Notes: generated from the letters alone by a model not told the origin. Numbered from the stretch's first letter, positions 14,150-63,320 are shown. The stretch: DNA of 64,000 nt from Minisyncoccota bacterium (GCA_046350795.1 JAXLZT010000001.1:484705-548704); one strand, 5' to 3'. A program made the numbers and translations.

Positions 14150-14152
14150 TTT

Positions 14153-14183
14153 TATAAAAAAATAGGACGGTCCGTGTGGACCG
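14153..14183 (-). terminator. intrinsic terminator for the minus-strand GC-rich small gene (CGGTCC-gtgt-GGACCG followed by a T8 tract on the minus strand)
   Basis: A perfect 6-bp GC stem with a 4-nt loop. The U-tract lies on the minus strand only, with an A-tract on the plus side. Confidence 0.6.
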
Positions 14184-14215
14184 CCCTTGGTTGTGGCTTC
14201 TTCCGACTTGTCAGC

Positions 14216-14377
14216 TCACAGCCAGATCGGCTGCGGGAGCTTGGGGCTGGAGATGATGCGACCCAAGTAGACCTTGACGTGAAGCGTCTTGGACGACTTG
14301 CGTCCCTTGTCATCGAAGTGGTGGACGACCACTTCCGCCTTCGTTCTCGTCTTGTTCTTGCTGATGATCTTGACCAT
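14216..14377 (-). CDS. hypothetical small basic protein (53 aa) in GC-rich cassette A
   Basis: Hand translation gives MVKIISKNKTRTKAEVVVHHFDDKGRKSSKTLHVKVYLGRIISSPKLPQPIWL. GGGG Shine-Dalgarno 6 nt upstream. Codons end in G/C (aag, gtc, atc, ctc), unlike the neighbours. The unit has its own promoter and terminator. The ORF track only showed the longer overlapping frames at 14152..14481 (-) and 14174..14407 (+), which look non-coding. Confidence 0.5.
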   Translation of the reverse strand: MVKIISKNKTRTKAEVVVHHFDDKGRKSSKTLHVKVYLGRIISSPKLPQPIWL

Positions 14378-14410
14378 TTCGGACCCCTTTCAGAAGTGTA
14401 CGAATGACAT

Positions 14411-14429
14411 GTGACTGAACACCAGTCAC
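14411..14429. promoter_or_regulatory. perfect inverted repeat GTGACTG-N5-CAGTCAC at the 5-prime end of the cassette-A transcript, upstream of grpE
   Basis: A 7-bp perfect palindromic arm pair lying between the cassette-A -10 box and its Shine-Dalgarno, and roughly 100 nt upstream of grpE. Confidence 0.45.
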
Positions 14430-14435
14430 AATACA

Positions 14436-14463
14436 AGTATAACATGTATATATATTTTGTCAA
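14436..14463 (-). promoter_or_regulatory. sigma70-type promoter TTGACA-16-TATACT (minus strand) for cassette A
   Basis: Consensus -35 box with 5/6 match in the -10 box and a 16-nt spacer. Confidence 0.55.
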
Positions 14464-14533
14464 GTAGAACGAATAACTCAATTTTGCCTATAATATTGAA
14501 ACCATGGTCGTGTTTTGATAACATACTGTTGTT

Positions 14534-17052: not shown

Positions 17053-18135
17053 ATGGCAAAAGATTTTTACGAAACACTTGGCGTAAAAAAAGACGCTTCA
17101 AAAGACGAGATAAAAAAAGCGTTTCGTAAGCTCGCGCATCAATATCATCCAGACAAACAAGGTGGTGATGAAAAAAAGTTTAAAGAAGTAAACGAAGCAT
17201 ATAGCGTGCTTTCTGATGACAAAAAAAGATCAGAGTACGATACATACGGACAAACTTTTGGCGGAGGTGGCCCGGGCGCTGGTGGTTTCGGTGGAGGTTT
17301 CAGTGGCCAAGGTTTTGGTGACTTCGATTTCTCTCAATTTACAGGCGGACAAGGTTTTGATTTTGGAGATATTTTTGGTGACATCTTTGGTGGCGGACAG
17401 CGAGCACGTACAAAACGCGGACGCGATATTTCTATCGACATAGAGCTCACATTTTCTGAGTCTGTTTTCGGCGTAAACAGAAAAATTCTTTTAAACAAAA
17501 CATCTAGCTGTGAAAGATGTAAAGGTGAAGGCGGTGAGCCAGGTACAGAGATGCACACTTGCAAGACTTGCAATGGCAAAGGAAAAATTCGCGATGTAAA
17601 ACGCACTATCCTTGGATCTATTGCGACCGAGCGTATTTGTGAAGATTGTCGCGGAAAAGGCAAGACTCCAAAAGAAAAATGTAAAGAGTGTAAAGGTCTT
17701 GGCGTAGTGAAAAAAGAGCAAGAGATCGACCTAAAAATCCCTGCGGGAATAGATGATGGAGAAATGATGCGCATGACTGGCGCAGGTGAAGCTGTCGCTG
17801 GTGGCGTGCCTGGAGATTTGTATATAAAAATTCATGTAAAAAAGCATCCAATTTTCCGCAAAGAAGGCAACAATCTAGTGATGGACATGAATATCAAGCT
17901 CTCTGACGCGCTTTTGGGAGGTGTGCGTACCGTGAGTACTTTAGATGGAGATATAAAAGTGACTATTCCAGAAAATATTACTTTCGGTGAGATACTTCGT
18001 GTAAAAGGAAAAGGTGTACCTACAGACAAAAGTCATCGCGGAGATATTTTGATAAAAATAAATATAGAGCTACCACGCCGACTTTCAAAAGAAGCCAAAA
18101 AGCTCGTCGAGCAACTCAAAAAAGAGGGGGTGTAG
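17053..18135 (+). CDS. dnaJ: molecular chaperone DnaJ
   Basis: J-domain HPD, Gly/Phe-rich linker and four CxxCxGxG zinc-finger repeats. Confidence 0.95.
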
Positions 18136-18148
18136 GAAATCTTTATCA

Positions 18149-18176
18149 TTTGACCCCTGCACCTCGACCATATATT
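18149..18176 (+). promoter_or_regulatory. candidate promoter (TTTGAC-16-TATATT) for GC-rich cassette B
   Basis: Hexamer matches about 55 nt upstream of the cassette-B ATG. Confidence 0.35.
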
Positions 18177-18229
18177 ATTCCGTCAGGTTAAGGTCTTTTA
18201 CCCCCAAACTCCGAAAGGAAAGAAGCATC

Positions 18230-18628
18230 ATGCCGAAAAAAGAAAAACGCAAAGTTTCCGGTGTGCTTGGAAGGCGAGCGCTTCGCCTCCCACTTCAGCT
18301 CGAAAGGCTCAAACACCCGGATTCCTGGCTTGAGCGAATGGTGGCACGTATGTGGCATAAAGAGAATGCTGTTCTTCCTGCACCGTTCCCGTTTGTGCTC
18401 GGTGCTCAACCACCAGCTTTCTCGGGCAGGGTCAGAGCCATTCTGAATGAGGGCAACCCCAGCCGTCGTGACGTTGAAATCGTCAACTCGACTATCCAGT
18501 GGCTTGGTACCGGGGTCGGTATCTGTTTCTGTAGGGAGGTCGTAGAGACCTACAATCGAGAACTGGTGAAGCGCAGGCAAGCACGACGACGCAAGATGCA
18601 GAAAGCATCTGGCACGAAGACCTCCTAA
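18230..18628 (+). CDS. hypothetical basic protein (132 aa) in GC-rich cassette B
   Basis: A GC-rich ORF with G/C-ending codons and Lys/Arg-rich termini. Upstream promoter-like hexamers and its own terminator are present. The equally long antisense ORF 18188..18580 lacks these signals. Confidence 0.45.
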   Translation: MPKKEKRKVSGVLGRRALRLPLQLERLKHPDSWLERMVARMWHKENAVLPAPFPFVLGAQPPAFSGRVRAILNEGNPSRRDVEIVNSTIQWLGTGVGICFCREVVETYNRELVKRRQARRRKMQKASGTKTS

Positions 18629-18646
18629 CGGGGGTTTTCTTTTTTA
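18619..18646 (+). terminator. intrinsic terminator of cassette B (GACCTCC-taac-GGGGGTT followed by a T-rich tract)
   Basis: Stem with a G-U wobble followed by TTTTCTTTTTT; the stop codon sits in the loop. Confidence 0.5.
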
Positions 18647-18654
18647 TAAAAAAC

Positions 18655-18683
18655 TTTCAAAACCCGCGCCATTCTGCTATTAT
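18655..18683 (+). promoter_or_regulatory. candidate promoter (TTTCAA-17-TATTAT) for trpS, giving a leaderless transcript
   Basis: The -10 box ends 7 nt before the trpS ATG and there is no Shine-Dalgarno. Confidence 0.35.
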
Positions 18684-18690
18684 TTCCAAT

Positions 18691-19677
18691 ATGAAATCAG
18701 GAAAAAAGATACTCGTGTCTGGTGTAAAACCAACCGGTCGACCGCATATTGGCAACTATTTCGGCGCGATGAAACAAATGGTTGATTTGCAAGATGAGCA
18801 CGACTGTCATCTTTTTATTGCCGACCTACATGCACTCACATCAGTAAATGACGCGATAGAGCTTTCACAAAGCACTCTTGATCTAGCCATCGACTACCTC
18901 GCTATCGGCCTCGACCCTAAAAAAGTCACAATATACAAACAATCAGACATACCTCAGACGGCTGAGCTGGCTTGGATTTTCAACTGCATCACCACAATGC
19001 CATACCTCATGCGCGCGCATGCTTTCAAAGACGCCGAAGCAAAAAATCATGAAATAAATGTTGGAGTTTTTGATTATCCTCTACTAATGTCAGCAGATAT
19101 TTTACTTCCAGAAGCAGACGTAGTACCTGTAGGCGCCGACCAAAAACAGCATATAGAAATAGCTCGCGACACAGCAGAAAAATTCAACCGACTTTTTGGC
19201 GAGACTTTCAAAATGCCCGAAGCTTTGATTGTAAAAGACGTCATGACTGTCCCAGGCACAGACGGACAAAAGATGAGTAAAAGCTATGGCAACACTATTT
19301 GCCTTTTTGCTAGCGACGACGAGATCATGAAGGCTGTAATGAAAATACCGACAGATTCAAAGGGTGTAGATGAGCCAAAAAATCCTGATGAATGCAAAGT
19401 TTTTGCACTGCACAAACTTTTTGCCAGCGCAGATGAGCTAGCTGACATTCGTGCAAGATATGAAAAGGGTGGACTCGGATACAAAGAATCAAAAGAAATT
19501 CTCGCGCGTAACATTTCAGCATTTATCACGCCACTTCGCACAAAACGCGAGAAGATAGCGCAAGACACAGAATTTATCATGGACATTTTGAAAGATGGAG
19601 GAAAAAAGATGCACATGCACGCAGAAAAGAAAATGAATGAAATCCGCACAAAGGTGGGATTGGCTTTTAAGCAGTAA
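18691..19677 (+). CDS. trpS: tryptophan--tRNA ligase
   Basis: HIGN motif (GRPHIGNYFG) and KMSKS (KMSKSYGN). Confidence 0.95.
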   Translation: MKSGKKILVSGVKPTGRPHIGNYFGAMKQMVDLQDEHDCHLFIADLHALTSVNDAIELSQSTLDLAIDYLAIGLDPKKVTIYKQSDIPQTAELAWIFNCITTMPYLMRAHAFKDAEAKNHEINVGVFDYPLLMSADILLPEADVVPVGADQKQHIEIARDTAEKFNRLFGETFKMPEALIVKDVMTVPGTDGQKMSKSYGNTICLFASDDEIMKAVMKIPTDSKGVDEPKNPDECKVFALHKLFASADELADIRARYEKGGLGYKESKEILARNISAFITPLRTKREKIAQDTEFIMDILKDGGKKMHMHAEKKMNEIRTKVGLAFKQ

Positions 19678-19707
19678 TCAAGATATTTAAAAATTAGGCA
19701 AACAAAA

Positions 19708-19740
19708 ACCCCGCAACAACGCAGACTCGGGGTCTTTGTT
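19708..19740. terminator. bidirectional terminator between trpS (+) and the cassette-C gene (-): ACCCCG...CGGGGT with T-rich flanks
   Basis: A GC stem flanked by A-tracts and T-tracts on both strands, sitting between the convergent stops. Confidence 0.45.
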
Positions 19741-19758
19741 GATGCGGAGTGTCTCTCA

Positions 19759-20256
19759 TCACCACGTGTAGTAGAACCTGGGATCCGTGGCAGGCGAGTA
19801 TCGATCCCCTGGGTACTTGTCTTCATTCCGGATAATTGCACCGCTTTTGCTGAGTTCAAACTGCATGTGACTCGCATTGGCGGTATATCCGTGATCGGTC
19901 GGAGTGATCTCGTTGAATGCGTACGAGATGTGCCGACCCGCTTCGTCCAAGACATACATAGCCACGTCGCGCTTGCCGAGAAGAGCCCCGTCAGAAAGAA
20001 GCCCAATCTGGTCGTAGCCCTCAAGCGAAGCAGGCATGTCCTTTTCGTTGAGGACAAACCAGAACTGACCCATTCGGCCGATCTTGGTGCCGTCTCCCAG
20101 TGTCTGGTACTCCTGCAAGATCGGCTTAATGCCAATCTGCTGGTTCACCTGGATAGCGTTGGCTTCCAGGTAGTTGATTCGCATCCTCAAATTGTGCGAA
20201 TTGCAGATCGAATCAACCGCAAACAGAAAGAGGACGAAAATCAGAGCATTCTTCAT
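19759..20256 (-). CDS. hypothetical secreted protein (165 aa, signal peptide) in GC-rich cassette C
   Basis: N-terminal signal-like sequence MKNALIFVLFLFAVDSIC. AAGGAG Shine-Dalgarno 8 nt upstream of the ATG. GC-rich codon usage. Confidence 0.55.
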   Translation of the reverse strand: MKNALIFVLFLFAVDSICNSHNLRMRINYLEANAIQVNQQIGIKPILQEYQTLGDGTKIGRMGQFWFVLNEKDMPASLEGYDQIGLLSDGALLGKRDVAMYVLDEAGRHISYAFNEITPTDHGYTANASHMQFELSKSGAIIRNEDKYPGDRYSPATDPRFYYTW

Positions 20257-20329
20257 TGGTACTTCTCCTTGTTGGTGAGGTATTTCAAACTACGTGTCAG
20301 AATTGAAACGTAGGAACAGTCTTGCCACT

Positions 20330-20358
20330 ACTTTAGCACCTTTTTGGCTATATGTCAA
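20330..20358 (-). promoter_or_regulatory. sigma70-type promoter TTGACA-17-TAAAGT (minus strand) for cassette C
   Basis: Consensus -35 box. The leader carries CTACGT...ACGTAG and TTCAA...TTGAA stems. Confidence 0.45.
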
Positions 20359-20456
20359 GCTAGTAAGAAGTTCTATTTTGCCCATATTTCTGTTATTATT
20401 CCTCATATATTTAATAAAACAGCCCGGCGAAACCGGTGCGACGAAAAAACAAAACC

Positions 20457-21851
20457 ATGGAAAGAACTTTAGTGAGAGAACTCAAAAATCATATCGGCAA
20501 AGAAGTGCTACTCAAGGGCTGGGTGGATATTCGTCGTGATCACGGCAAGCTCATTTTCATAGACATGCGCGACGCGTCTGGAAAAGTGCAAATGGTTGCG
20601 CTTCCAAATCACACAGAAGCACACGCTCTCGCAAACACAGTGCGCACAGAATGGGTCATTGAAGTCAAAGGAAAAGTAAATCCTCGCCCAGAAAAAATGG
20701 TAAAAGCGGGTGAGCTCAACGGAGAGCTTGAAATAGAAATCCTCGACATGAAAGTGCTCAACGAAGCACAGACACCTCCTTTTGACGTGGGCTCTGACGG
20801 TCGCGACATCAACGAAGAGACTCGTCTCAAGTATCGCTACCTTGATTTGCGCCGACCGAGAATGCAAGCAAACATTCGCAACCGCCACAAAGCGATACAG
20901 TTTGTGCGCGAGTTTTACACGCGCGAAGGTTTTACAGAAGTCGAGACACCATATCTGACCAAGTCTACACCTGAGGGCTCTCGCGACTACATTGTGCCTT
21001 CTCGCCTAGATCAAGGTAAATTTTACGCCCTCCCACAATCTCCTCAGCAATACAAACAGCTCCTCATGTCCGCTGGCTTTGAAAGATATTTTCAGATTGC
21101 TCGATGTTTCCGCGACGAAGACACACGAGGCGACAGACAGCCTGAGTTTACACAAATAGATATTGAAATGAGTTTTGCTGTACAAGAAGACGTGATGGCA
21201 ATGAATGAAAAAATGATCACAGAGCTTGTGCAAAAGCTTTATCCAGAGAAAAAAATCACAGCGCTTCCTTTTCCACGACTTTCATACAAAGAAGCTATGG
21301 AAAAGTACGGCAATGACAAGCCTGATTTGCGCGTAGACAAGAATGATCCAAATGAGCTCGCATTTTGCTGGGTTATAGACTTCCCATTTTTTGAAAAGAC
21401 AGATGAGGGCGGTTGGACATTTACTCACAATCCTTTTTCTGCGCCAAAGCCTGAGTACGTGCCAGATTTACTCGCAAAGAAAAATATAGAAGGCATCGTC
21501 GCTGCACAGTATGACATGGTGCTCAATGGCTTTGAAATAGGTGGCGGAGGAATACGCAACCACACTCCTGCAATGCTTCGCGCTGTGTTTGAAATAATGG
21601 GATATGAGGCGGAGAGGATAGAGAAAAACTTTGGTCATATGTTAGAAGCTTTCGCTTCTGGTACACCTCCACATGGAGGTCTAGCTTTTGGCTTTGATAG
21701 ATTGATTATGCTCCTACAAAACGAGCCGAATATTCGCGAGGTCATAGCTTTTGCCAAAACAGGCGAAGGCCGTGATCCAATGATGCAGTCACCAGCCGAG
21801 GTTGCGGGTGCGCAGTTGAAAGAGTTGGGGATTAAGGTGGTCATGGACTAA
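20457..21851 (+). CDS. aspS: aspartate--tRNA ligase, bacterial type but lacking the GAD insertion domain
   Basis: QSPQ (LPQSPQQYKQ), motif 2 FRDED and motif 3 GGGG.R are present. The segment between DKPDLR and WVIDFPFFE is only about 15 aa, against about 130 aa in E. coli. The ORF track starts at a GTG at 20436; the ATG at 20457 gives MERTLV. Confidence 0.9.
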   Translation: MERTLVRELKNHIGKEVLLKGWVDIRRDHGKLIFIDMRDASGKVQMVALPNHTEAHALANTVRTEWVIEVKGKVNPRPEKMVKAGELNGELEIEILDMKVLNEAQTPPFDVGSDGRDINEETRLKYRYLDLRRPRMQANIRNRHKAIQFVREFYTREGFTEVETPYLTKSTPEGSRDYIVPSRLDQGKFYALPQSPQQYKQLLMSAGFERYFQIARCFRDEDTRGDRQPEFTQIDIEMSFAVQEDVMAMNEKMITELVQKLYPEKKITALPFPRLSYKEAMEKYGNDKPDLRVDKNDPNELAFCWVIDFPFFEKTDEGGWTFTHNPFSAPKPEYVPDLLAKKNIEGIVAAQYDMVLNGFEIGGGGIRNHTPAMLRAVFEIMGYEAERIEKNFGHMLEAFASGTPPHGGLAFGFDRLIMLLQNEPNIREVIAFAKTGEGRDPMMQSPAEVAGAQLKELGIKVVMD

Positions 21852-21916
21852 AAATTACAGGAATCAAAGTTTAATTGGTTAATTTCAAATTAAAGGTTTT
21901 GGTCTTAACTTTTAAT

Positions 21917-21944
21917 TTGCATTATTTGTATTATATGCTATACT
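21917..21944 (+). promoter_or_regulatory. sigma70-type promoter TTGCAT-16-TATACT for fic and the downstream hsd genes, giving a leaderless mRNA
   Basis: The -10 box ends 6 nt before the fic ATG and there is no Shine-Dalgarno. Confidence 0.5.
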
Positions 21945-21950
21945 CGACCT

Positions 21951-23087
21951 ATGGCAGACAAATACAAGTCAGGAACGCATAAGCAACATGAGGGCTACAA
22001 GAGCTTTCAGCCATCTTTGGTTAATAAGAGTTTTGAGTGGACAGACAAGCGTATTGATGTCCTTCTTGCTGATGCCATGAGATATCTCGGCGAGCTCAAC
22101 GCTTTTTCAAAGTTGGTCCCTGACGTGGATTTTTTCATAAAAATGCACATCGCAAAAGAAGCTACTACCTCAAGCAAAATTGAGGGTACACAGACAAAAC
22201 TCGATGAGGCACTTCTCCCTGAACTTGAAATTGATCCAGAAAAAAGAAACGACTGGGAAGAAGTTCAGAACTATGTAAAAGCCATCAACTACTCAATTGC
22301 AGAACTTGAAAGGCTACCCCTATCAATACGGCTTGCAAGAGATACGCATAAAGTTTTACTTTCTAGTGTTCGTGGATATACAAAACTTCCAGGAGAAGTT
22401 CGCCGAAGCCAGAACTGGATCGGTGGTGCAACCCTCAAAGATGCGGTATTTATTCCACCTCACCATGAAGAAGTTGGTGAACTCTTGAGTGATCTTGAAA
22501 GGTTTTGGCACAACAAAGAGGTTGATATTCCAGATCTTATAAAGATCGCCATCTCGCACTATCAATTCGAAACCATCCACCCATTCCTCGATGGTAATGG
22601 TCGTATTGGTCGACTGCTCATTACTCTTCACTTGGTGAGCCTTGGTATTCTTCAGAAGCCAACACTCTACATCTCAGATTTCTTCGAAAAGCATCGTCCG
22701 CAATATTACGATGGTCTTTCGCGTGTTCGCGAAACGAACGACATTGAGCACTGGTTGAGATTCTTTCTTACTGGTGTGCTTGAGACCGCAAAGAATTCAA
22801 GACAGACACTCGAGAAGATTATTGACCTTAGAAAGAAGTACGAAACAACAATCGAAAAAGGCATGGGCATCAAACGCCAAAAGCTTGGTAAGGAACTTTT
22901 GCGTTGCTTGTTCTCACAGCCAGTTGTAACGATTCGAGACATCGAGTCAATGCTCTCGGTGACATTCCCGACAGCGTCTGCAATAACAAAAGATTTTGTT
23001 AAGCTGGGTTTGTTCTCAGAGAAGACTGGGCTTAAGAAGGATCGAATCTTCTACCTTACCGAATACATTAATCTCTTTAATAAATAA
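21951..23087 (+). CDS. fic: Fic family protein (AMPylase/adenylyltransferase), class II with an N-terminal inhibitory motif
   Basis: Canonical [12 protein letters not shown] Fic motif. An upstream SSKIEG matches the [ST]xxxE[GN] inhibitory-helix motif. Confidence 0.85.
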
Positions 23088-23095
23088 TAAACATC

Positions 23096-25012
23096 ATGGA
23101 AAATTTCAACCAAAAAACATCAATGATCTGGAGTATAGCCGACATCTTACGTGGTGGCTGGAAACAGCATGAATACCAGGATGTGATATTGCCTTTGGTG
23201 GTTTTGAAGCGCCTCGATTCTATCCTTGCCGACACTAAAGCTTCGGTCCTCGAGAAATACAATGAGTATAAAGGCAAAGTGAATGACCTTGATCCTATCC
23301 TCAAGAAAACTTCAGGGACAGCCTTCTACAATATCTCTGATTACGATTTCAAAACTATTCTTGGAGAGCCAAAGCATCTCGCAAAGAACTTCAAGCAGTA
23401 CATTAACGGGTACAGCAAGAATATCCAGGACATCTTTGAGAAGTTTGATTTCAGCAAACAGCTCGAGCGTCTCGAAGGTGGTGATCTCTTGTTTTACGTG
23501 ATTCAGGAATTGAATAAAGTTGATTTGCACCCTTCAAAGGTAGACAACTATCAAATGGGACACATCTTTGAAGAACTTCTCCGAAAGTTTTCTGAAATGT
23601 CCAACGAAACCGCTGGAGAGCACTACACCCCACGAGACGTGATCGGACTTATGACCGAGATGCTCTTCTCGCCTGATAAGAAGGACCTCAAGAAACCTCA
23701 CGTTATAAAAAAGATTTATGACCCTGCCTGTGGTACAGGTGGCATGCTTTCTGTTGCTAAGGATTACATTCTCGAAAACATAAATAAAGAAGCTGACATT
23801 TTCCTTTACGGCCAAGAACTTAACTCGGTGACGTATGCAATGGCTAAGTCAGACATGCTTATCAAGGGTGATAATCCTGATCTAATTCGAGGTGGTGAAA
23901 AGGACCATTCAAAAGCAAGTACACTCGCCAACGATCAATTCTTTGCAGAAGTATTTGACTACGGACTAAGTAATCCACCCTACGGAGTTGATTGGAAGAA
24001 GGATAAGGATGCTGTAGAGCGTGAAGCATCTCGTGGATACGCTGGTAGGTTTGGTGCAGGAACTCCTCGCATTTCTGATGGACAACTTTTGTTCCTACAG
24101 CATCTCATTTCAAAGATGAAACCTGAAAAAGATGGCGGCTCACGTATTGCGATCGTTCACAACGGGTCCCCACTATTTACCGGTGATGCTGGTAGCGGAG
24201 AAAGTGAAATCCGCCGATGGATTCTTGAAAAGGATCTGCTCGAAGCAATCGTCGCATTGCCTGATCAGCTTTTCTATAACACAGGAATTAATACATACCT
24301 TTGGTTTATCACCAACAGAAAATCAAAAGAAAGAAAAAGTAAGGTTCAGCTTATTGATGCTCGCACCCTCTTCAAGAAAACTCGCAAGAGTCTTGGTAGT
24401 AAGCGACATGAGATTGACACTGAACACAAAAAACAAATTTTGGATCTGTACGAGAAATTTGAAGAAAATGAATACTCAAAGATTTTCAAGACAACAGACT
24501 TTGCATACAGACAGATCACCATTGAGCGCCCTCTCCGCCTCAAGCTTGATTTCACTCCAGAGAAAATAAAGGAGATTACCGAAACTCTTGATCCAAGCGC
24601 TATTAAAGCTGGCGTAAAGACACTCATAGAATCTTTTGAGAATCAGATATATATGAGCAAGAAGGTATTCGAAGAAGCTTTTGATAAAAGGGTTGAACAG
24701 TATGTATCAGGCAAGCTTACCGCCGCACTCTACAAAAAAATTATTTCTACCTTTAGCGAAAGTGATCCAGAGGCGGACATTGTACTTGATAAGAATGGCG
24801 ACCCAGAGGCCGACACGTCTTTGCGTGATTTTGAGAATGTTCCGTATGAGATGGATATCAAAGAATATTTTGATAAAGAGGTAAAGCCATACGTGCCTGA
24901 TGCTTGGATCAATGAATCAGTCCGAGATCACAAAGACGGTAAGGTTGGTATCGTGGGCTACGAGATTCCATTCACTCGCCACTTCTACAAGTACGAAGCC
25001 CACGAAGCTTAG
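23096..25012 (+). CDS. hsdM: type I restriction-modification system methyltransferase subunit HsdM
   Basis: N6-adenine methyltransferase motif IV NPPYG (LSNPPYGVDW); HsdM N-terminal and C-terminal regions. Confidence 0.9.
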   Translation: MENFNQKTSMIWSIADILRGGWKQHEYQDVILPLVVLKRLDSILADTKASVLEKYNEYKGKVNDLDPILKKTSGTAFYNISDYDFKTILGEPKHLAKNFKQYINGYSKNIQDIFEKFDFSKQLERLEGGDLLFYVIQELNKVDLHPSKVDNYQMGHIFEELLRKFSEMSNETAGEHYTPRDVIGLMTEMLFSPDKKDLKKPHVIKKIYDPACGTGGMLSVAKDYILENINKEADIFLYGQELNSVTYAMAKSDMLIKGDNPDLIRGGEKDHSKASTLANDQFFAEVFDYGLSNPPYGVDWKKDKDAVEREASRGYAGRFGAGTPRISDGQLLFLQHLISKMKPEKDGGSRIAIVHNGSPLFTGDAGSGESEIRRWILEKDLLEAIVALPDQLFYNTGINTYLWFITNRKSKERKSKVQLIDARTLFKKTRKSLGSKRHEIDTEHKKQILDLYEKFEENEYSKIFKTTDFAYRQITIERPLRLKLDFTPEKIKEITETLDPSAIKAGVKTLIESFENQIYMSKKVFEEAFDKRVEQYVSGKLTAALYKKIISTFSESDPEADIVLDKNGDPEADTSLRDFENVPYEMDIKEYFDKEVKPYVPDAWINESVRDHKDGKVGIVGYEIPFTRHFYKYEAHEA

Positions 25013-32320: not shown

Positions 32321-32367
32321 GCCATAGCCTACAGTGGCTTTAAATAGGCCTTTGTCGGCTATGGCGA
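32321..32367 (+). promoter_or_regulatory. leader stem-loop: 10-bp perfect inverted repeat CGCCATAGCC...GGCTATGGCG enclosing an ATG of the cassette-D ORF
   Basis: Perfect 10-bp arms separated by about 27 nt; an in-frame ATG lies inside the 3-prime arm. Coordinates are approximate (+/-2). Confidence 0.45.
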
Positions 32368-33125
32368 CACAGTGTTGCCCGCTAGCACTTCACAATGCCA
32401 TCCGTTTTACACGGACTGGCTCTACAGGAGACTGCCTAATGGGCACCTCAAATCCATCCTTTCAGACCAGCCAGATGCGTAAGGTTGAGGATACGCTACA
32501 TGAACAAGGGGTTACCCCAGAGATTCTGCAGAGAAACCTACTCGAGGGGGGTTATCTGTCGGACATTGCAGAAGCTGCGGCGTTTGGAGTACTTCCTTCT
32601 CGTAAGGAACTGCGCAATCTCTATGGTTTGAATGCGAAGACAAATCCACATCACAGCATCGTGATCAACTACGGCACGAAGAAGAATCCGAGAACACTCG
32701 GGGAGATGATCAGTTCGATAGAAGAGCTCCTTTGTGATCGTGATTCGAGTGGCTCCACGAAGACCTTTCGGGAACAGGGTCGCGTTGAGTATTTCACTCT
32801 TGTTGCAAACTTCCCCAATAAACTTCCTGATCCGAAAGCACTTCATCGCTTTCTGTCAGCGGAACCCGGCGGGAAACTCTGGATGTACGGAGGAATCGAA
32901 CACCTCGTGCATATCGACTGGAGTCAAACTTCGATTTTGGGGCCAAAGGCCCAGCTCTATGCACCAGGAGGAGCAATCCACTTCGGAAGAAATGATGAGG
33001 ACGTGCTCGTACCATACCTCACAATTAATCAGCATGGTAAGAAGTGGCTACGGTGGGAACTCAACCCATTTAGGAATGGTGTTGTTGAACTCAAGATCCT
33101 GCTTGTACGCAAGGTCAGCAACTGA
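32334..33125 (+). CDS. hypothetical protein (up to 263 aa) in GC-rich cassette D
   Basis: A GC-rich ORF whose start could be the GTG or one of the downstream ATGs. It has its own promoter-like hexamers and a strong terminator. No recognisable domain. Confidence 0.5.
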   Translation: MALNRPLSAMATQCCPLALHNAIRFTRTGSTGDCLMGTSNPSFQTSQMRKVEDTLHEQGVTPEILQRNLLEGGYLSDIAEAAAFGVLPSRKELRNLYGLNAKTNPHHSIVINYGTKKNPRTLGEMISSIEELLCDRDSSGSTKTFREQGRVEYFTLVANFPNKLPDPKALHRFLSAEPGGKLWMYGGIEHLVHIDWSQTSILGPKAQLYAPGGAIHFGRNDEDVLVPYLTINQHGKKWLRWELNPFRNGVVELKILLVRKVSN

Positions 33126-60039: not shown

Positions 60040-60492
60040 TCAGGTCTCCCAGTGCGGGATTCCAGTGAAGTCGATCTCCTTCTTCTCCTCGGGAGTCTCC
60101 TTGATCACCCCGAGCGCGGCAGCCCTCTCTTCTGCTGCCTTTTTCGCGTCTTCGACGGCATCCTCCACCCCCTTGATCAGGTCAGAGACCTTCAGTCGCC
60201 CAACTTCGAGGCGCTTGATCTGCTGATCGATCACGGTGCTGGAAATCTCAACGCCCACCAGATCCGACACATCGAGGTAGAACTCCTCGATGGCTGAAGG
60301 ATCGACCGACATGCTGACCTTGGAGGCACCCGCACCTCGCAACATGTCGGTGTCGACATGTGCTTCGAAGGCGAGCGCATCATTCCTCACAAAGGCGTCA
60401 GCCAGGTCATCTTCGATACCAAAGACTTCGATCAGAGACGCCGCGATCTTCTCCCTGACCGTCTCCGCTTTCTTTCTTGCTTCCGTGGCCAT
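60040..60492 (-). CDS. hypothetical acidic protein (150 aa) in GC-rich cassette E
   Basis: An ATG (MATEARKK...) preceded by a GGAGA Shine-Dalgarno with an 8-nt spacer. The track start at 60507 is an upstream TTG. GC-rich codons; own promoter and terminator. Confidence 0.5.
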   Translation of the reverse strand: MATEARKKAETVREKIAASLIEVFGIEDDLADAFVRNDALAFEAHVDTDMLRGAGASKVSMSVDPSAIEEFYLDVSDLVGVEISSTVIDQQIKRLEVGRLKVSDLIKGVEDAVEDAKKAAEERAAALGVIKETPEEKKEIDFTGIPHWET

Positions 60493-60558
60493 AGTGGCGT
60501 TCTCCAAGTATACGGAGGTTTACTGATCTGTGGGTTGCCAACGTGACAATCCGATATA

Positions 60559-60587
60559 ATTTATATCAGAAAATACAATTTTGTCAA
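60559..60587 (-). promoter_or_regulatory. sigma70-type promoter TTGACA-17-ATAAAT (minus strand) for cassette E
   Basis: Consensus -35 box, AT-rich -10 box, 17-nt spacer. Confidence 0.45.
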
Positions 60588-60606
60588 ATAAAATCGTGAT
60601 CCATAG

Positions 60607-60639: not shown

Positions 60640-60957
60640 TTATTTTATTGCTTCTATTTTTACCTTAAAAAATGGCTGTCTATGACCGTTTTTCTTTAAA
60701 TATCTACTCTTTTGTTTATATTTTATGACCTCTACCTTTTTTGCTCGGCCAGCTTCAGTAAAAGAAGCCACCACAGAAGCACCGTCTATAAAAGGAGTAC
60801 CAATAGTTGTATCTTTGCCGTTGTCCACTAGTAAAACCTTATCGAAGGTGATCTTATCACCTGCTTTAAAATCACCAGGAAGCTTCTCAATAGTGAGAAT
60901 GTCCCCTGCTTTTACCTGATATTGCTTACCGCCTGTTTGTATAACTGCAAATTCCAT
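60640..60957 (-). CDS. rplU: 50S ribosomal protein L21
   Basis: L21 family (MEFAVIQTGGKQYQV...). Confidence 0.95.
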   Translation of the reverse strand: MEFAVIQTGGKQYQVKAGDILTIEKLPGDFKAGDKITFDKVLLVDNGKDTTIGTPFIDGASVVASFTEAGRAKKVEVIKYKQKSRYLKKNGHRQPFFKVKIEAIK

Positions 60958-60966
60958 AGTCGTTAT

Positions 60967-60994
60967 ATTCTACATAAATAGCCCAAAAATGCAA
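60967..60994 (-). promoter_or_regulatory. promoter TTGCAT-16-TAGAAT (minus strand) for rplU
   Basis: Hexamers just upstream of the rplU ATG. Confidence 0.45.
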
Positions 60995-61003
60995 GAAAGT
61001 TTG

Positions 61004-61283
61004 GAAAAAAGGGAAGCCCCGGAGACGCGATGCATCAATCCGGGGCAGAGCGTTACACCCAGCTTGGCGACAGGGCGATCACGCTCTAGATACTGACTGG
61101 ATCACCTCCCGTTCTTGGATCCAAGGGCTTCAAGGCCAGATCTGCCTGATCCTGAAGCTTTGTGGCGAGATGGAAAACCCACGATAGTCTTCATGGTGAT
61201 AACTCCTCTGGCGCATTGCGCCGGTTGTTCACACATTGGTGCTAACCCGTTTATAAGTATAAACAGACAAACAAAAAATACAA
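61004..61283 (-). other. GC-rich cassette F, a compact minus-strand transcription unit (promoter TTGTAT-16-TATACT, leader hairpin, roughly 250-nt transcript, intrinsic terminator): sRNA or small-peptide mRNA
   Basis: -35 at 61278-83 and -10 at 61256-61. GGCGC-aat-GCGCC hairpin at 61210-22. Terminator CCCCGGAGA...TCCGGGG plus T-tract at 61004-45. Internal palindromes CAGATCTG and CTTGGATCCAAG. Confidence 0.45.
61102..61194 (-). CDS. candidate 30-aa peptide inside cassette F (MKTIVGFPSRHKASGSGRSGLEALGSKNGR)
   Basis: GAGGAG Shine-Dalgarno 8 nt upstream of the ATG. The longer track ORF 61102..61290 begins upstream of the predicted transcription start. Confidence 0.25.
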   Translation of the reverse strand: MKTIVGFPSRHKASGSGRSGLEALGSKNGR

Positions 61284-61296
61284 CCCCCAATTCCCC

Positions 61297-62370
61297 CTAT
61301 TCGTCAGCTTCTGGTTTTTCTAAAACCATAGTTTCTATTCCCACAGCCTGACCAGTAATCCTTAGCACATCTTTATCCAATTTTTTAAATTCTTTTGAGC
61401 TTGCATTGAAATGATTGATGGTGGTCGCAAGAGAGTTGCCCATTTTTTGATGATAGTCATCATAGCTTTTGAGGTGCTTACCAAGCTCGTCGACGCGCTT
61501 GATAATATCCTTTGCAGTATCTTCTATTTGCATTGCTTTTAGTCCCTGCAAGACAGTCTGTAGATATGCCAAAAAGGAAGTTGGCGACACAATAATCACC
61601 TTATATTTCCCCGCAGCGCGTTGTATCAGATTTTCTGTATCTTCTTTTAGCGCCCCAATTTTATTTATCAAAAGATCATAATAAATGGCTTCGTGTGGAA
61701 TAAACATAAAAGCAAAATCCATCGTATTTTCATTTGGACGAATATACTTTGCTGTCTCGACGATACGATTTTTTAAATCATTTACAAAGACTTTTTCTAA
61801 ACGCTCTTTTTCCACCGTATTTTTTTCCTCAATAATTCTATTGTAATTTTCTAGAGAAAACTTTGAGTCAATAGGTATAACTTTATCTTTTACAAACACT
61901 GCAGCATCTACTATTTCTCCATCAGTAAAAGCGTACTGCATTTGATATGATCCTGGTGGCAATACATTTTTTAGCAAAGTTTCTAGATAATATTCCCCCA
62001 CTATTCCGCGTTGTTTTGGATTTTTTAAAATATCTTGAAGTGACTGTAGCTGATCTGCAAAAGACACTACCTGCTTATTGGTCTCATCAAGTTTTGTGAG
62101 GCTTTGTGTTACTTCTTTTATAAGTCGAGAAGACTCGGAAAATTGATTGCGCATGGATTCATTTACCTGTTTGCTTGTCTCCCCTATCTTTGCATCCACG
62201 GTGCGAGTAAGCTCATTCATTTGCTGTAAAAGCAGGTTGAAACCGGTATCATTTTTACCAGCATCAGAGCTTGCTACAGATGATTTTTGTTTAGAAATTA
62301 AAAACCATACAAAAAACACATTACCCAAAAAGGCCACTAGCAAGATAATTAATAGCATTTCAACTGACAT
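61297..62370 (-). CDS. rmuC: DNA recombination protein RmuC
   Basis: N-terminal transmembrane helix, coiled-coil and the RmuC C-terminal domain. Confidence 0.8.
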   Translation of the reverse strand: MSVEMLLIILLVAFLGNVFFVWFLISKQKSSVASSDAGKNDTGFNLLLQQMNELTRTVDAKIGETSKQVNESMRNQFSESSRLIKEVTQSLTKLDETNKQVVSFADQLQSLQDILKNPKQRGIVGEYYLETLLKNVLPPGSYQMQYAFTDGEIVDAAVFVKDKVIPIDSKFSLENYNRIIEEKNTVEKERLEKVFVNDLKNRIVETAKYIRPNENTMDFAFMFIPHEAIYYDLLINKIGALKEDTENLIQRAAGKYKVIIVSPTSFLAYLQTVLQGLKAMQIEDTAKDIIKRVDELGKHLKSYDDYHQKMGNSLATTINHFNASSKEFKKLDKDVLRITGQAVGIETMVLEKPEADE

Positions 62371-62862: not shown

Positions 62863-62891
62863 AATTCAAAATCCGATTATCCACAGCCTAT

Positions 62892-62920
62892 TTGACTTTT
62901 GCGTGTTTTTGTGATAGATT
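62892..62920 (+). promoter_or_regulatory. sigma70-type promoter TTGACT-17-TAGATT for cassette G
   Basis: Near-consensus hexamers. The leader carries a GGGGA-cgt-TCCCC hairpin at 62941-53. Confidence 0.5.
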
Positions 62921-62982
62921 GATACAGGATGTTATGGCGTGGGGACGTTCCCCTAGCCAATTTCACACACGGAGGTGTAAAG

Positions 62983-63300
62983 ATGGTTCTCAGACCACAG
63001 ACAGAGGTCGAGCGTCTTGCCACCTACTCGGTGGCAAAATTTCGGGCAAATCCGAGAATGGGTTTACCGATCGCTATCATAGAGGTGCTCCGCTATGCGG
63101 GAAGAGAGTACCTCTATGAGAACGTGCTCAACGAATGTCGTCGCAGAAGTCAGATCAAGAGACGAGCAAAGAGTGATGCGCTCAAGAACACGACGACACA
63201 AGAATCCAAGCCGTGCCAAAAAGTGACAAAATCACATACTGGCACGGACACTCCTTTCCTCCCAGGAATGGAACCAACAAAGAAGTACAGGCTCACCTAA
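62983..63300 (+). CDS. hypothetical basic protein (105 aa) in GC-rich cassette G
   Basis: An ATG (MVLRPQ...) 7 nt after a GGAGG Shine-Dalgarno. The track ORF begins upstream at 62929. GC-rich codons; a terminator follows. Confidence 0.5.
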   Translation: MVLRPQTEVERLATYSVAKFRANPRMGLPIAIIEVLRYAGREYLYENVLNECRRRSQIKRRAKSDALKNTTTQESKPCQKVTKSHTGTDTPFLPGMEPTKKYRLT

Positions 63301-63320
63301 CGGTGCGCCTTTTGTTTTAT
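63290..63320 (+). terminator. intrinsic terminator of cassette G (GGCTCACC-taac-GGTGCGCC followed by TTTTGTTTT)
   Basis: A stem with one mismatch followed by a U-tract. Confidence 0.45.

Follow-up and report, generated by a model that had tools for sequence, protein, structure and literature searches.

Between rmuC (61297-62370) and rplU (60640-60957), in a 64,000-nucleotide (nt) stretch of Minisyncoccota DNA (GCA_046350795.1, JAXLZT010000001.1:484705-548704; hereafter the window, numbered from its first letter), lies a small GC-rich unit at 61005-61283 which, like both of its neighbors, is encoded on the minus strand. The original prediction, made from the sequence, described a separate transcription unit that might be either a structured small RNA (sRNA) or the mRNA of a 30-residue peptide. 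The question raised by this locus is whether its product is the RNA or the peptide, and whether the unit is a gene at all. The features described were found in this interval, with some details in error, and the element that they form is real, new and narrow in distribution. The evidence best supports reading it as a new small RNA confined to few lineages, which may carry a short open reading frame (sORF) that is translated but not constrained in sequence.

Distribution and predicted transcript of the rmuC-rplU element

Relatives of the locus were gathered through L21 in GTDB genomes, through RmuC homologs and L21 homologs, and by a pattern scan of metagenomes. A homologous element was found at exactly the same site in six distinct species-level lineages, that of the window and those designated L091, L092, L093, L011 and L108. 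Measured against the window (100% for both proteins), RmuC and L21 identities are 94% and 93% in L091, 93% and 96% in L092, 91% and 94% in L093, 87% and 95% in L011, and 88% and 95% in L108, for which the RmuC value covers the C-terminal 76 residues only. The metagenome scan, for which the terminator pattern was used, yielded a single true homolog, L096, which is nearly identical to L011; its two other matches were high-GC sequences hit by chance. Exact protein matches assign the window to a metagenome-assembled genome of the Paceibacteria/Patescibacteria (GCA_964417815.1), and strain-level copies of the element were recovered at 99-100% identity. The three variable positions among eight near-identical copies, which lie ahead of the promoter, at the 5' end and at the base of the variable hairpin described below, are uninformative.

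The element is absent at the rmuC-rplU locus of L012, L013/L100, L014/L097, L015, L099/L105 and L020, and the locus is also element-free across L097-L107, outgroups included. At these loci 46-80 nt separate the rmuC stop from the rplU ATG, and the rplU promoter is the same. A neighbor-joining tree of RmuC and L21 places the carriers in one clade with L012, which lacks the element, nested within it; thus, the simplest history is one gain followed by one loss. In L012 the spacer after the rmuC stop (L012:2950-2975) reads GGGCGGTTTTCTTGCAT; it resembles the last terminator arm and U-tract of L108, GAGGCCGCTTTTTTCTTGCAT, and may be a deletion scar.

The promoter of the original prediction, TTGTAT-16-TATACT, is present where it was placed, but its description as strong did not hold: the -35 hexamer matches the TTGACA consensus at only three of six positions, and for this reason the promoter is missing from the list returned by a consensus scan. 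We judge it to be real because it is conserved in the homologs. The block GTTGTGTTTTTTAT..GTTTATACTTATAA is kept in L091, L092 and L093, and functional equivalents are found in L011 (TATAAT) and L108 (TAAAAT). Transcription would start near A61250. At the other end, the predicted GC stem and U-tract are a hairpin at 61046-61016 followed by UUCCCUUUUUU at 61015-61005, the U-tract being found on the minus strand only; this terminator architecture is retained in L108 despite a different sequence. The transcript predicted from promoter and terminator is about 240-246 nt long, of which the sORF takes up 93 of about 246 nt, and its G+C content is 55% vs 38% for the window, in agreement with the earlier description of a GC-rich unit. 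Promoter and rho-independent terminator thus appear to bound an RNA in the 50-500 nt range of independent sRNAs, and both are conserved in all six lineages. With rplU keeping a promoter of its own, the unit would be transcribed separately from the minus strand, as had been proposed. Coordinates of the features are given in Table 1.

Table 1. Predicted features of the rmuC-rplU element, and the promoter of the downstream gene. MFE, minimum free energy; SD, Shine-Dalgarno.
Feature	Position	Strand	Description
Promoter	61256..61283	-	TTGTAT (61283-61278), 16-nt spacer, TATACT (61261-61256)
5' hairpin H1	61210..61222	-	GGCGC-AAU-GCGCC, found in all six lineages
SD-like purine-rich tract SD1, CCAGAGGAG	61203..61211	-	8 nt 5' of the sORF ATG
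sORF	61102..61194	-	30 codons + UGA, exactly covering the central hairpin domain
Closing helix, 5' strand	61167..61181	-	UGGAU-UUUC-CAUCUC, resembles the 16S 3' end UGGAUCACCUCC
Inner hairpin of central domain	61127..61158	-	GCUUCAGG...CCUUGAAGC, MFE fold; non-conserved palindrome CAGATCTG in apex
Near-invariant motif GGGAGGUGAUCCAG	61097..61110	-	Includes the sORF stop UGA (61104-61102)
Variable 3' hairpin	61047..61087	-	AGAGCGU...ACGCUCU, MFE fold
Intrinsic terminator	61005..61046	-	Long interrupted hairpin GCCCCGGA-UU-GAUGC-AUC-GCGUC-U-CCGGGGC, then UUCCCUUUUUU
rplU promoter (outside the element)	60955..60994	-	TTGCAT (60994-60989), 16-nt spacer, TAGAAT (60972-60967), ATG at 60957

No known family accounts for the element. 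At the gathering score, Rfam 15 matched no family in the whole window, and a search relaxed to E<=10 and permissive filters matched none within 61004-61296; the weak matches that it gave all fall on the rplU terminator. Neither a tRNA nor a transfer-messenger RNA (tmRNA) was found in the window by ARAGORN. The Rfam scan that the original prediction had proposed as its check therefore assigned no family, and the lack of RNase P, signal recognition particle (SRP) and tmRNA signatures that it had reported was borne out; 6S RNA was likewise not found. The families concerned are RF00010 and RF00011 for RNase P, RF00169 and RF01854 for bacterial SRP, RF00023 for tmRNA and RF00013 for 6S RNA. A likeness of the stretch CAGGAUCAGG to SRP domain IV was set aside, being unconserved in the homologs and without Rfam support. 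BLAST and nhmmer searches for a second copy in the window and 111 loci returned orthologous copies only, and a five-sequence nhmmer profile run against 93 loci and the window found nothing beyond the known homologs. Phage and plasmid collections held no meaningful similarity to the element. A mobile or phage origin was considered through two pattern scans of viral contigs, the matches of which were ordinary SD sequences or coding sequence; one weak nhmmer match, in L121, lies within a 532-amino acid (aa) ORF.

Predicted RNA structure and a putatively caged Shine-Dalgarno-like motif

The element is 50-76% identical between species whose RmuC proteins are 87-94% identical, and it has undergone large indels. 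Against this divergence, the blocks that survive in all six lineages are the promoter, H1, the sequence CCAGARRGG, the motif GGAGGTGATC (exact in five) and the terminator. The RNAalifold consensus of five sequences comprises H1, a helix between the purine tract and the 3' tail, a closed central domain, an inner hairpin and the terminator. In this structure the central domain is closed by pairing of GGAUUUUCC/CAUCUC with GGGAGGUGAUCC, and SD1 is predicted to pair over a long range with CUUCCCU in the 3' tail. Across the five sequences 91% of cells are paired. Thirteen pairs show changes on both sides, compared with 4.9 +/- 1.8 in column shuffles (none of 500 reached 13) and 0-6 in slid controls. 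The terminator, with 14 pairs, has 98.6% of its cells paired and three pairs with double changes. H1, a leader hairpin correctly described in the original prediction, has two compensatory positions: a C-G pair is replaced by U-A in L011 and L108, and a G-C pair by A-U in L093.

The inner structure is more variable. In L093 the inner hairpin has GUCUC/GAGAC at the same columns, that is, compensatory changes, and in L091 it is replaced by a different long hairpin, CCAAACUUC/GAAGUUUGG. The window, L092 and L093 share the sequence of the closing helix's 5' strand, in place of which L011 has UUCACC/GGUGGG in the five-sequence alignment. The variable 3' hairpin has other sequences, still hairpin-forming, in L092, L011 and L108 and is wholly deleted in L093. 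When the sixth, very divergent sequence was added, H1 (with its two covarying positions) and the terminator were still supported, and the inner hairpins no longer aligned. MFE z-scores of the sense strand relative to dinucleotide shuffles were -2.9, -5.5, -4.1, -1.7, -3.3 and -4.6 for the six homologs; the window copy alone folds modestly better than its shuffles (z of -2.7 to -2.9). Of the two possibilities first offered, the structured RNA is thus favored by covariation and z-scores, and the functional 30-aa peptide is disfavored by the unconserved amino acids described below. The covariation analysis across homologous loci that had been suggested gave a mixed outcome with these six homologs, with covariation only in H1 and the terminator and none in the invariant closing helix.

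The most conserved feature of the element, GGGAGGTGATCCAG (61110-61097), which includes the stop codon of the sORF, was overlooked in the original prediction. The canonical 3' end of bacterial 16S rRNA is CUGGAUCACCUCC, to which GGAGGUGAUCCAG is perfectly complementary over 13 nt; the comparison is with the canonical sequence and not with the host's own, as neither the window nor the relatives' loci hold a 16S gene that could confirm the anti-SD sequence. The motif is unique in the window, and the 8-mer GGAGGTGA likewise occurs only once in the 64 kb. Conservation of the motif runs 5-6 nt beyond the stop codon of the sORF, and coding therefore cannot explain it. Nor is it a ribosome-binding site for a downstream gene, since no start codon follows the GGAGG motif in any of the six homologs; in L093 the terminator lies directly 3' of it. 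In all six lineages the motif is predicted to be paired, with a probability of being unpaired of 0.12-0.30. RNAalifold, with five as with six sequences, pairs GGAGGUGAUCC with the 5' strand of the closing helix, and this partner, UGGAU-UUUC-CAUCUC, itself resembles the 16S tail.

From these observations we propose that an RNA gene entered a small clade of Paceibacteria, within the Candidate Phyla Radiation (CPR), on one occasion and has been retained under RNA-level selection. Its transcript would be built of H1, the purine-rich, SD-like tract SD1, the long central hairpin, the variable hairpin as an optional part and the long terminator. The functional product would be this RNA itself, neither a peptide encoded by it nor any known housekeeping RNA. 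The GGAGGUGAUCC(AG) motif would be caged by the internal anti-SD mimic in the closing helix of the central hairpin. In the subclade of the window, an ORF of 28-31 codons starts just before this hairpin and stops at the UGA inside the motif; translation of the sORF, or some other unfolding, would open the hairpin and expose a very long complement of the anti-SD sequence. The RNA might then act as a translation-gated regulatory RNA or as one that interacts with ribosomes. This full account, a self-contained, clade-restricted small RNA gene under RNA-level selection whose SD-like motif stays caged until the hairpin opens, is put forward tentatively; we regard it as nearly balanced between true and false, tilting slightly toward the latter. 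A more specific version, in which the RNA would serve as a gated decoy of the small ribosomal subunit, is improbable on present evidence: the opened hairpin would let a perfect complement of 13-17 nt capture the anti-SD of the 30S subunit, or the RNA might mimic the SD:anti-SD helix for a factor by which this helix is recognized. If true, such a decoy would specifically tune the SD-dependent, GC-rich accessory cassettes described below, in a genome whose housekeeping genes mostly lack SD sequences.

Several observations weigh against our proposal. Both strands of the closing helix are conserved, with no compensatory change among the six sequences, and its pairing is therefore a prediction; moreover, in L091 the motif has its best partner in another anti-SD-like segment, located at the 5' end. 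The homologs number six and come from one narrow clade, which makes the covariation statistics weak, and the structure tested was derived from the same alignment; for these reasons the structural evidence is real but limited. An ordinary small mRNA may equally be laid out as 5' hairpin, SD, ORF and terminator, and other GC-rich cassettes in the window share this layout and do encode proteins. Finally, all three frames of the GC-rich stretch are nearly free of stops, and because of this the persistence of the ORF is weak evidence either way.

The short ORF and alternative explanations

It is possible, though we consider it unlikely, that the element is an ordinary small-protein gene. The peptide of 28-31 aa would then be functional, the hairpin and terminator would stabilize its mRNA, and the inner structure would be a by-product of high G+C content. 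The 30-codon ORF of the original prediction is present and would encode MKTIVGFPSRHKASGSGRSGLEALGSKNGR before its stop. The GAGGAG Shine-Dalgarno sequence assigned to it is also there, at 61208-61203, and the duplex energy of SD1 with the anti-SD tail is -8.8 kcal/mol, stronger than that at the first ATG of every one of the 50 long ORFs of the window tested. A tail of 97 nt follows the stop codon, close to the 3' untranslated region of about 100 nt that had been predicted, and holds one further hairpin (61087-61047). The two palindromes placed in that region, CAGATCTG (61144-61137) and CTTGGATCCAAG (61125-61114), lie instead inside the ORF; neither is conserved in any homolog, and as lineage-specific sequences they do not behave as functional sites. 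An SD and ATG are found in four of the six lineages (window, L091, L092 and L093), with ORFs of 93, 93, 96 and 87 nt, all multiples of three despite several indels, which are themselves multiples of 3 nt or mutually compensating. In L093 the ATG is shifted by two codons with the frame kept. The layout is like that of neighboring GC-rich cassettes with ORFs of 53, 105 and 150 aa, and the neighboring 150-aa orphan likewise evolves very fast (48% identity beside an RmuC that is 94% identical).

The sequence of the peptide, on the other hand, shows no purifying selection. Substitutions between the window and L092 fall at codon positions one, two and three in the proportions 3:8:7 (hand count), second positions thus changing as often as third; about 10 are non-synonymous to 1 synonymous, and they lie in the predicted loops of the RNA. 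L091 has a compensated frameshift over about 8 codons, L108 has AUU in place of the ATG, and L011 has no usable canonical start and has lost its stop to an inserted C. Conservation of the motif past the stop codon and the nearly stop-free state of all frames, noted above, also speak against a protein gene. No homolog of the peptide was found in Pfam, PHROGs or 1.84 billion representative proteins. A degraded rpmH, suggested by a similar TKNGR stretch in L34, was likewise considered, and a Pfam scan of the peptides at E<=10 found nothing. A type I toxin-antitoxin system was rejected because the peptide is polar and basic, with no hydrophobic stretch. A functional peptide sequence is thus not supported by the comparison of homologs, although translation of the frame as such may matter in the subclade of the window.

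Less probable still is that the element is non-functional DNA, a pseudogene or insertion scar of foreign or duplicated origin that is decaying and retains promoter- and terminator-like remnants. Its confinement to one small clade with a loss in L012, the deletion of an entire hairpin in L093 and the lack of a family match of any kind would all fit this explanation. Rates of divergence point both ways. Identity of the element to the window is 0.65 in L091 and 0.50 in L011, no higher than at the four-fold degenerate sites of rmuC (0.66 and 0.57), but in L092 and L093 it is 0.76 and 0.68, clearly above this neutral benchmark (0.52 and 0.40). As identity is in part near the benchmark, the whole element is only moderately constrained. 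Decay would not be expected, however, to leave promoter, H1, SD1, the motif of 10-13 nt and terminator in six lineages in which synonymous sites are nearly saturated, with compensatory changes among them, nor to leave all six copies folding better than their shuffles.

The position of the element, always directly upstream of rplU and on the same strand, raises the possibility of a cis-acting leader, attenuator or transcriptional insulator, in which translation of the short ORF would decide terminator formation and read-through into rplU. A short SD-led ORF followed by a terminator is suited to such a role, and in L093 the stop codon is about 10 nt before the terminator stem, so that a terminating ribosome would overlap the stem. 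In the other five lineages, however, a hairpin of 40-70 nt intervenes between stop codon and terminator. The stretch from the terminator to the rplU ATG also contains a promoter for that gene, nearly identical in relatives without the element, and because this promoter is kept there as well, rplU is independent of the promoter of the element. The gene looks leaderless and without an SD, since its -10 sequence ends 9 nt before the ATG, and read-through would give it a long leader lacking an SD. None of the ribosomal-protein leader families in Rfam, the L21 leader included, matches the element at E<=10, and close relatives manage without it. We therefore consider regulation of rplU in cis to be improbable. 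A derivation of the element's promoter by duplication of that of rplU was also examined and rejected, the alignment scoring no better than shuffles.

A divergent housekeeping RNA (6S, SRP, RNase P or tmRNA) missed by the Rfam models in CPR genomes could be imagined from the size and G+C contrast of the element, which are like those of RNA genes in AT-rich genomes, and from the want of any Rfam match in the whole window, but it can be practically dismissed: there is no covariance-model match at E<=10 even with permissive filters, ARAGORN is negative, an identity of 50-76% with large indels is far too fast for such RNAs, the element is missing from this locus in relatives, and its multi-hairpin fold is like none of the four.

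Comparison with known systems and neighboring cassettes

Read as a small RNA, the element can be compared with several known systems. SgrS/SgrT, RNAIII/hld and SR1/SR1P are bacterial dual-function small RNAs that carry sORFs. Like them, the element has an independent promoter, an intrinsic terminator, a size in the 200-500 nt class and strong secondary structure, with a short SD-led ORF embedded in the structured RNA. It differs from them in that the sORF lacks a canonical start in two of the six lineages and its peptide is unconstrained; in that its conserved core is not a typical single-stranded seed, being instead an SD-like sequence predicted to be sequestered by an anti-SD mimic; and in the restriction of the family to one small CPR clade. 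SD-sequestering hairpins are known from the ermC and cat leaders and from RNA thermometers, as parts of translational attenuators and riboregulators. The element likewise combines a leader ORF, preceded by an SD for its own translation, with a second SD-like sequence paired to a segment within that ORF, so that a ribosome on the leader codons would free it. In none of the homologs, however, does a start codon or gene come after the second SD; moreover, the ORF runs into this SD and ends inside it rather than before it, and the complementarity to 16S rRNA, at 13-17 nt, is far longer than that of a working SD. With the L21_leader (RF00559) the element shares a structured RNA and a place directly upstream of rplU on the same strand, but it gives no match to the covariance model, a terminator and the rplU promoter stand between it and rplU, and it is absent from close relatives. 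This promoter also sets it apart from leader-peptide attenuators, for all that an ORF and a terminator are present.

The closest parallels in layout are in the window itself. GC-rich units with their own promoter, SD and terminator lie between AT-rich housekeeping genes at 14150-14480, 60040-60590 and 62877-63320, and all encode orphan proteins. The element resembles these mini-cassettes in having its own promoter, a 5' hairpin, an SD, a GC-rich body and a terminator, in its location between AT-rich housekeeping genes, and in being lineage-restricted, fast-evolving and without a family. It differs in that their ORFs, of 53-150 codons, fill the transcript, whereas its conserved features act at the RNA level. 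The GC-rich cassettes carry SD sequences, whereas long ORFs in general are not enriched for an SD at their first ATG; the median duplex energy at the first ATGs of the window, about -1.4 kcal/mol, does not improve on that of random positions. The host thus appears to make little use of Shine-Dalgarno sequences.

The unit at 60040-60590 (minus strand), between rplU and recR, has 58% G+C, a TTGACA-18-TAAATT promoter and an ORF for an acidic orphan protein of 150 aa, the only relative of which among 5.8 billion proteins is its L091 version. Its distribution is close to that of the element without being the same: it is present in the window, L091, L092, L011 (with a different sequence) and L108, and absent in all outgroups and in L093, a carrier of the element. 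In its leader (60489-60520, minus strand) an anti-SD-like CCUCC can pair, as judged by eye, with the SD UGGAG before the ATG, AACCUCCGUAUACUUGGAGAAC, to give a further hairpin that would sequester an SD. Between rpsI and grpE, the unit at 14150-14480 (minus strand) has a TTGACA-17-TATACT promoter, a 5' hairpin GUGACUGG..CAGUCAC and the SD GAAAGGGG, and ends in a terminator, GGGCGGUCC..GGACCGUCC followed by a U-run; its 53-aa orphan ORF (14216-14377) matches neither Pfam nor PHROG families. In the unit at 62877-63320 (plus strand), also GC-rich, GGGGACGUUCCCC forms the leader hairpin and GGAGGUG the SD, and an orphan ORF of 105 aa starts with the ATG at 62983; a longer ORF call of 123 aa begins at 62929, and the same slot holds 80, 105 and 123 aa in the near-identical strains L001, L009 and L010. 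Two further regions of raised G+C content were noted. One, at 32334-33125 (plus strand), is a 263-aa ORF of about 50% G+C in an AT-rich stretch, with no Pfam or PHROG family; the other is a segment of about 7 kb (approximately 17200-24400) at a G+C fraction of 0.41-0.49 vs 0.32-0.38 in its flanks, with islands of 0.53-0.54 at 18201-18637 and 19692-20194.

CPR bacteria (Patescibacteria) are uncultivated, with tiny genomes and few known regulators, and to our knowledge almost nothing has been described of their regulatory RNAs. The wider pattern in this genome, of GC-rich, fast-evolving orphan cassettes between housekeeping genes, may merit a study of its own. Within it, the rmuC-rplU element is a clean candidate for a small RNA that was gained, retained and structurally constrained, and whose only strongly conserved sequence is an unusually long complement of the anti-SD. 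If the motif does not engage ribosomes, the element would be a lineage-specific sRNA or sORF of local interest; if it does, it would represent a new way of controlling translation.

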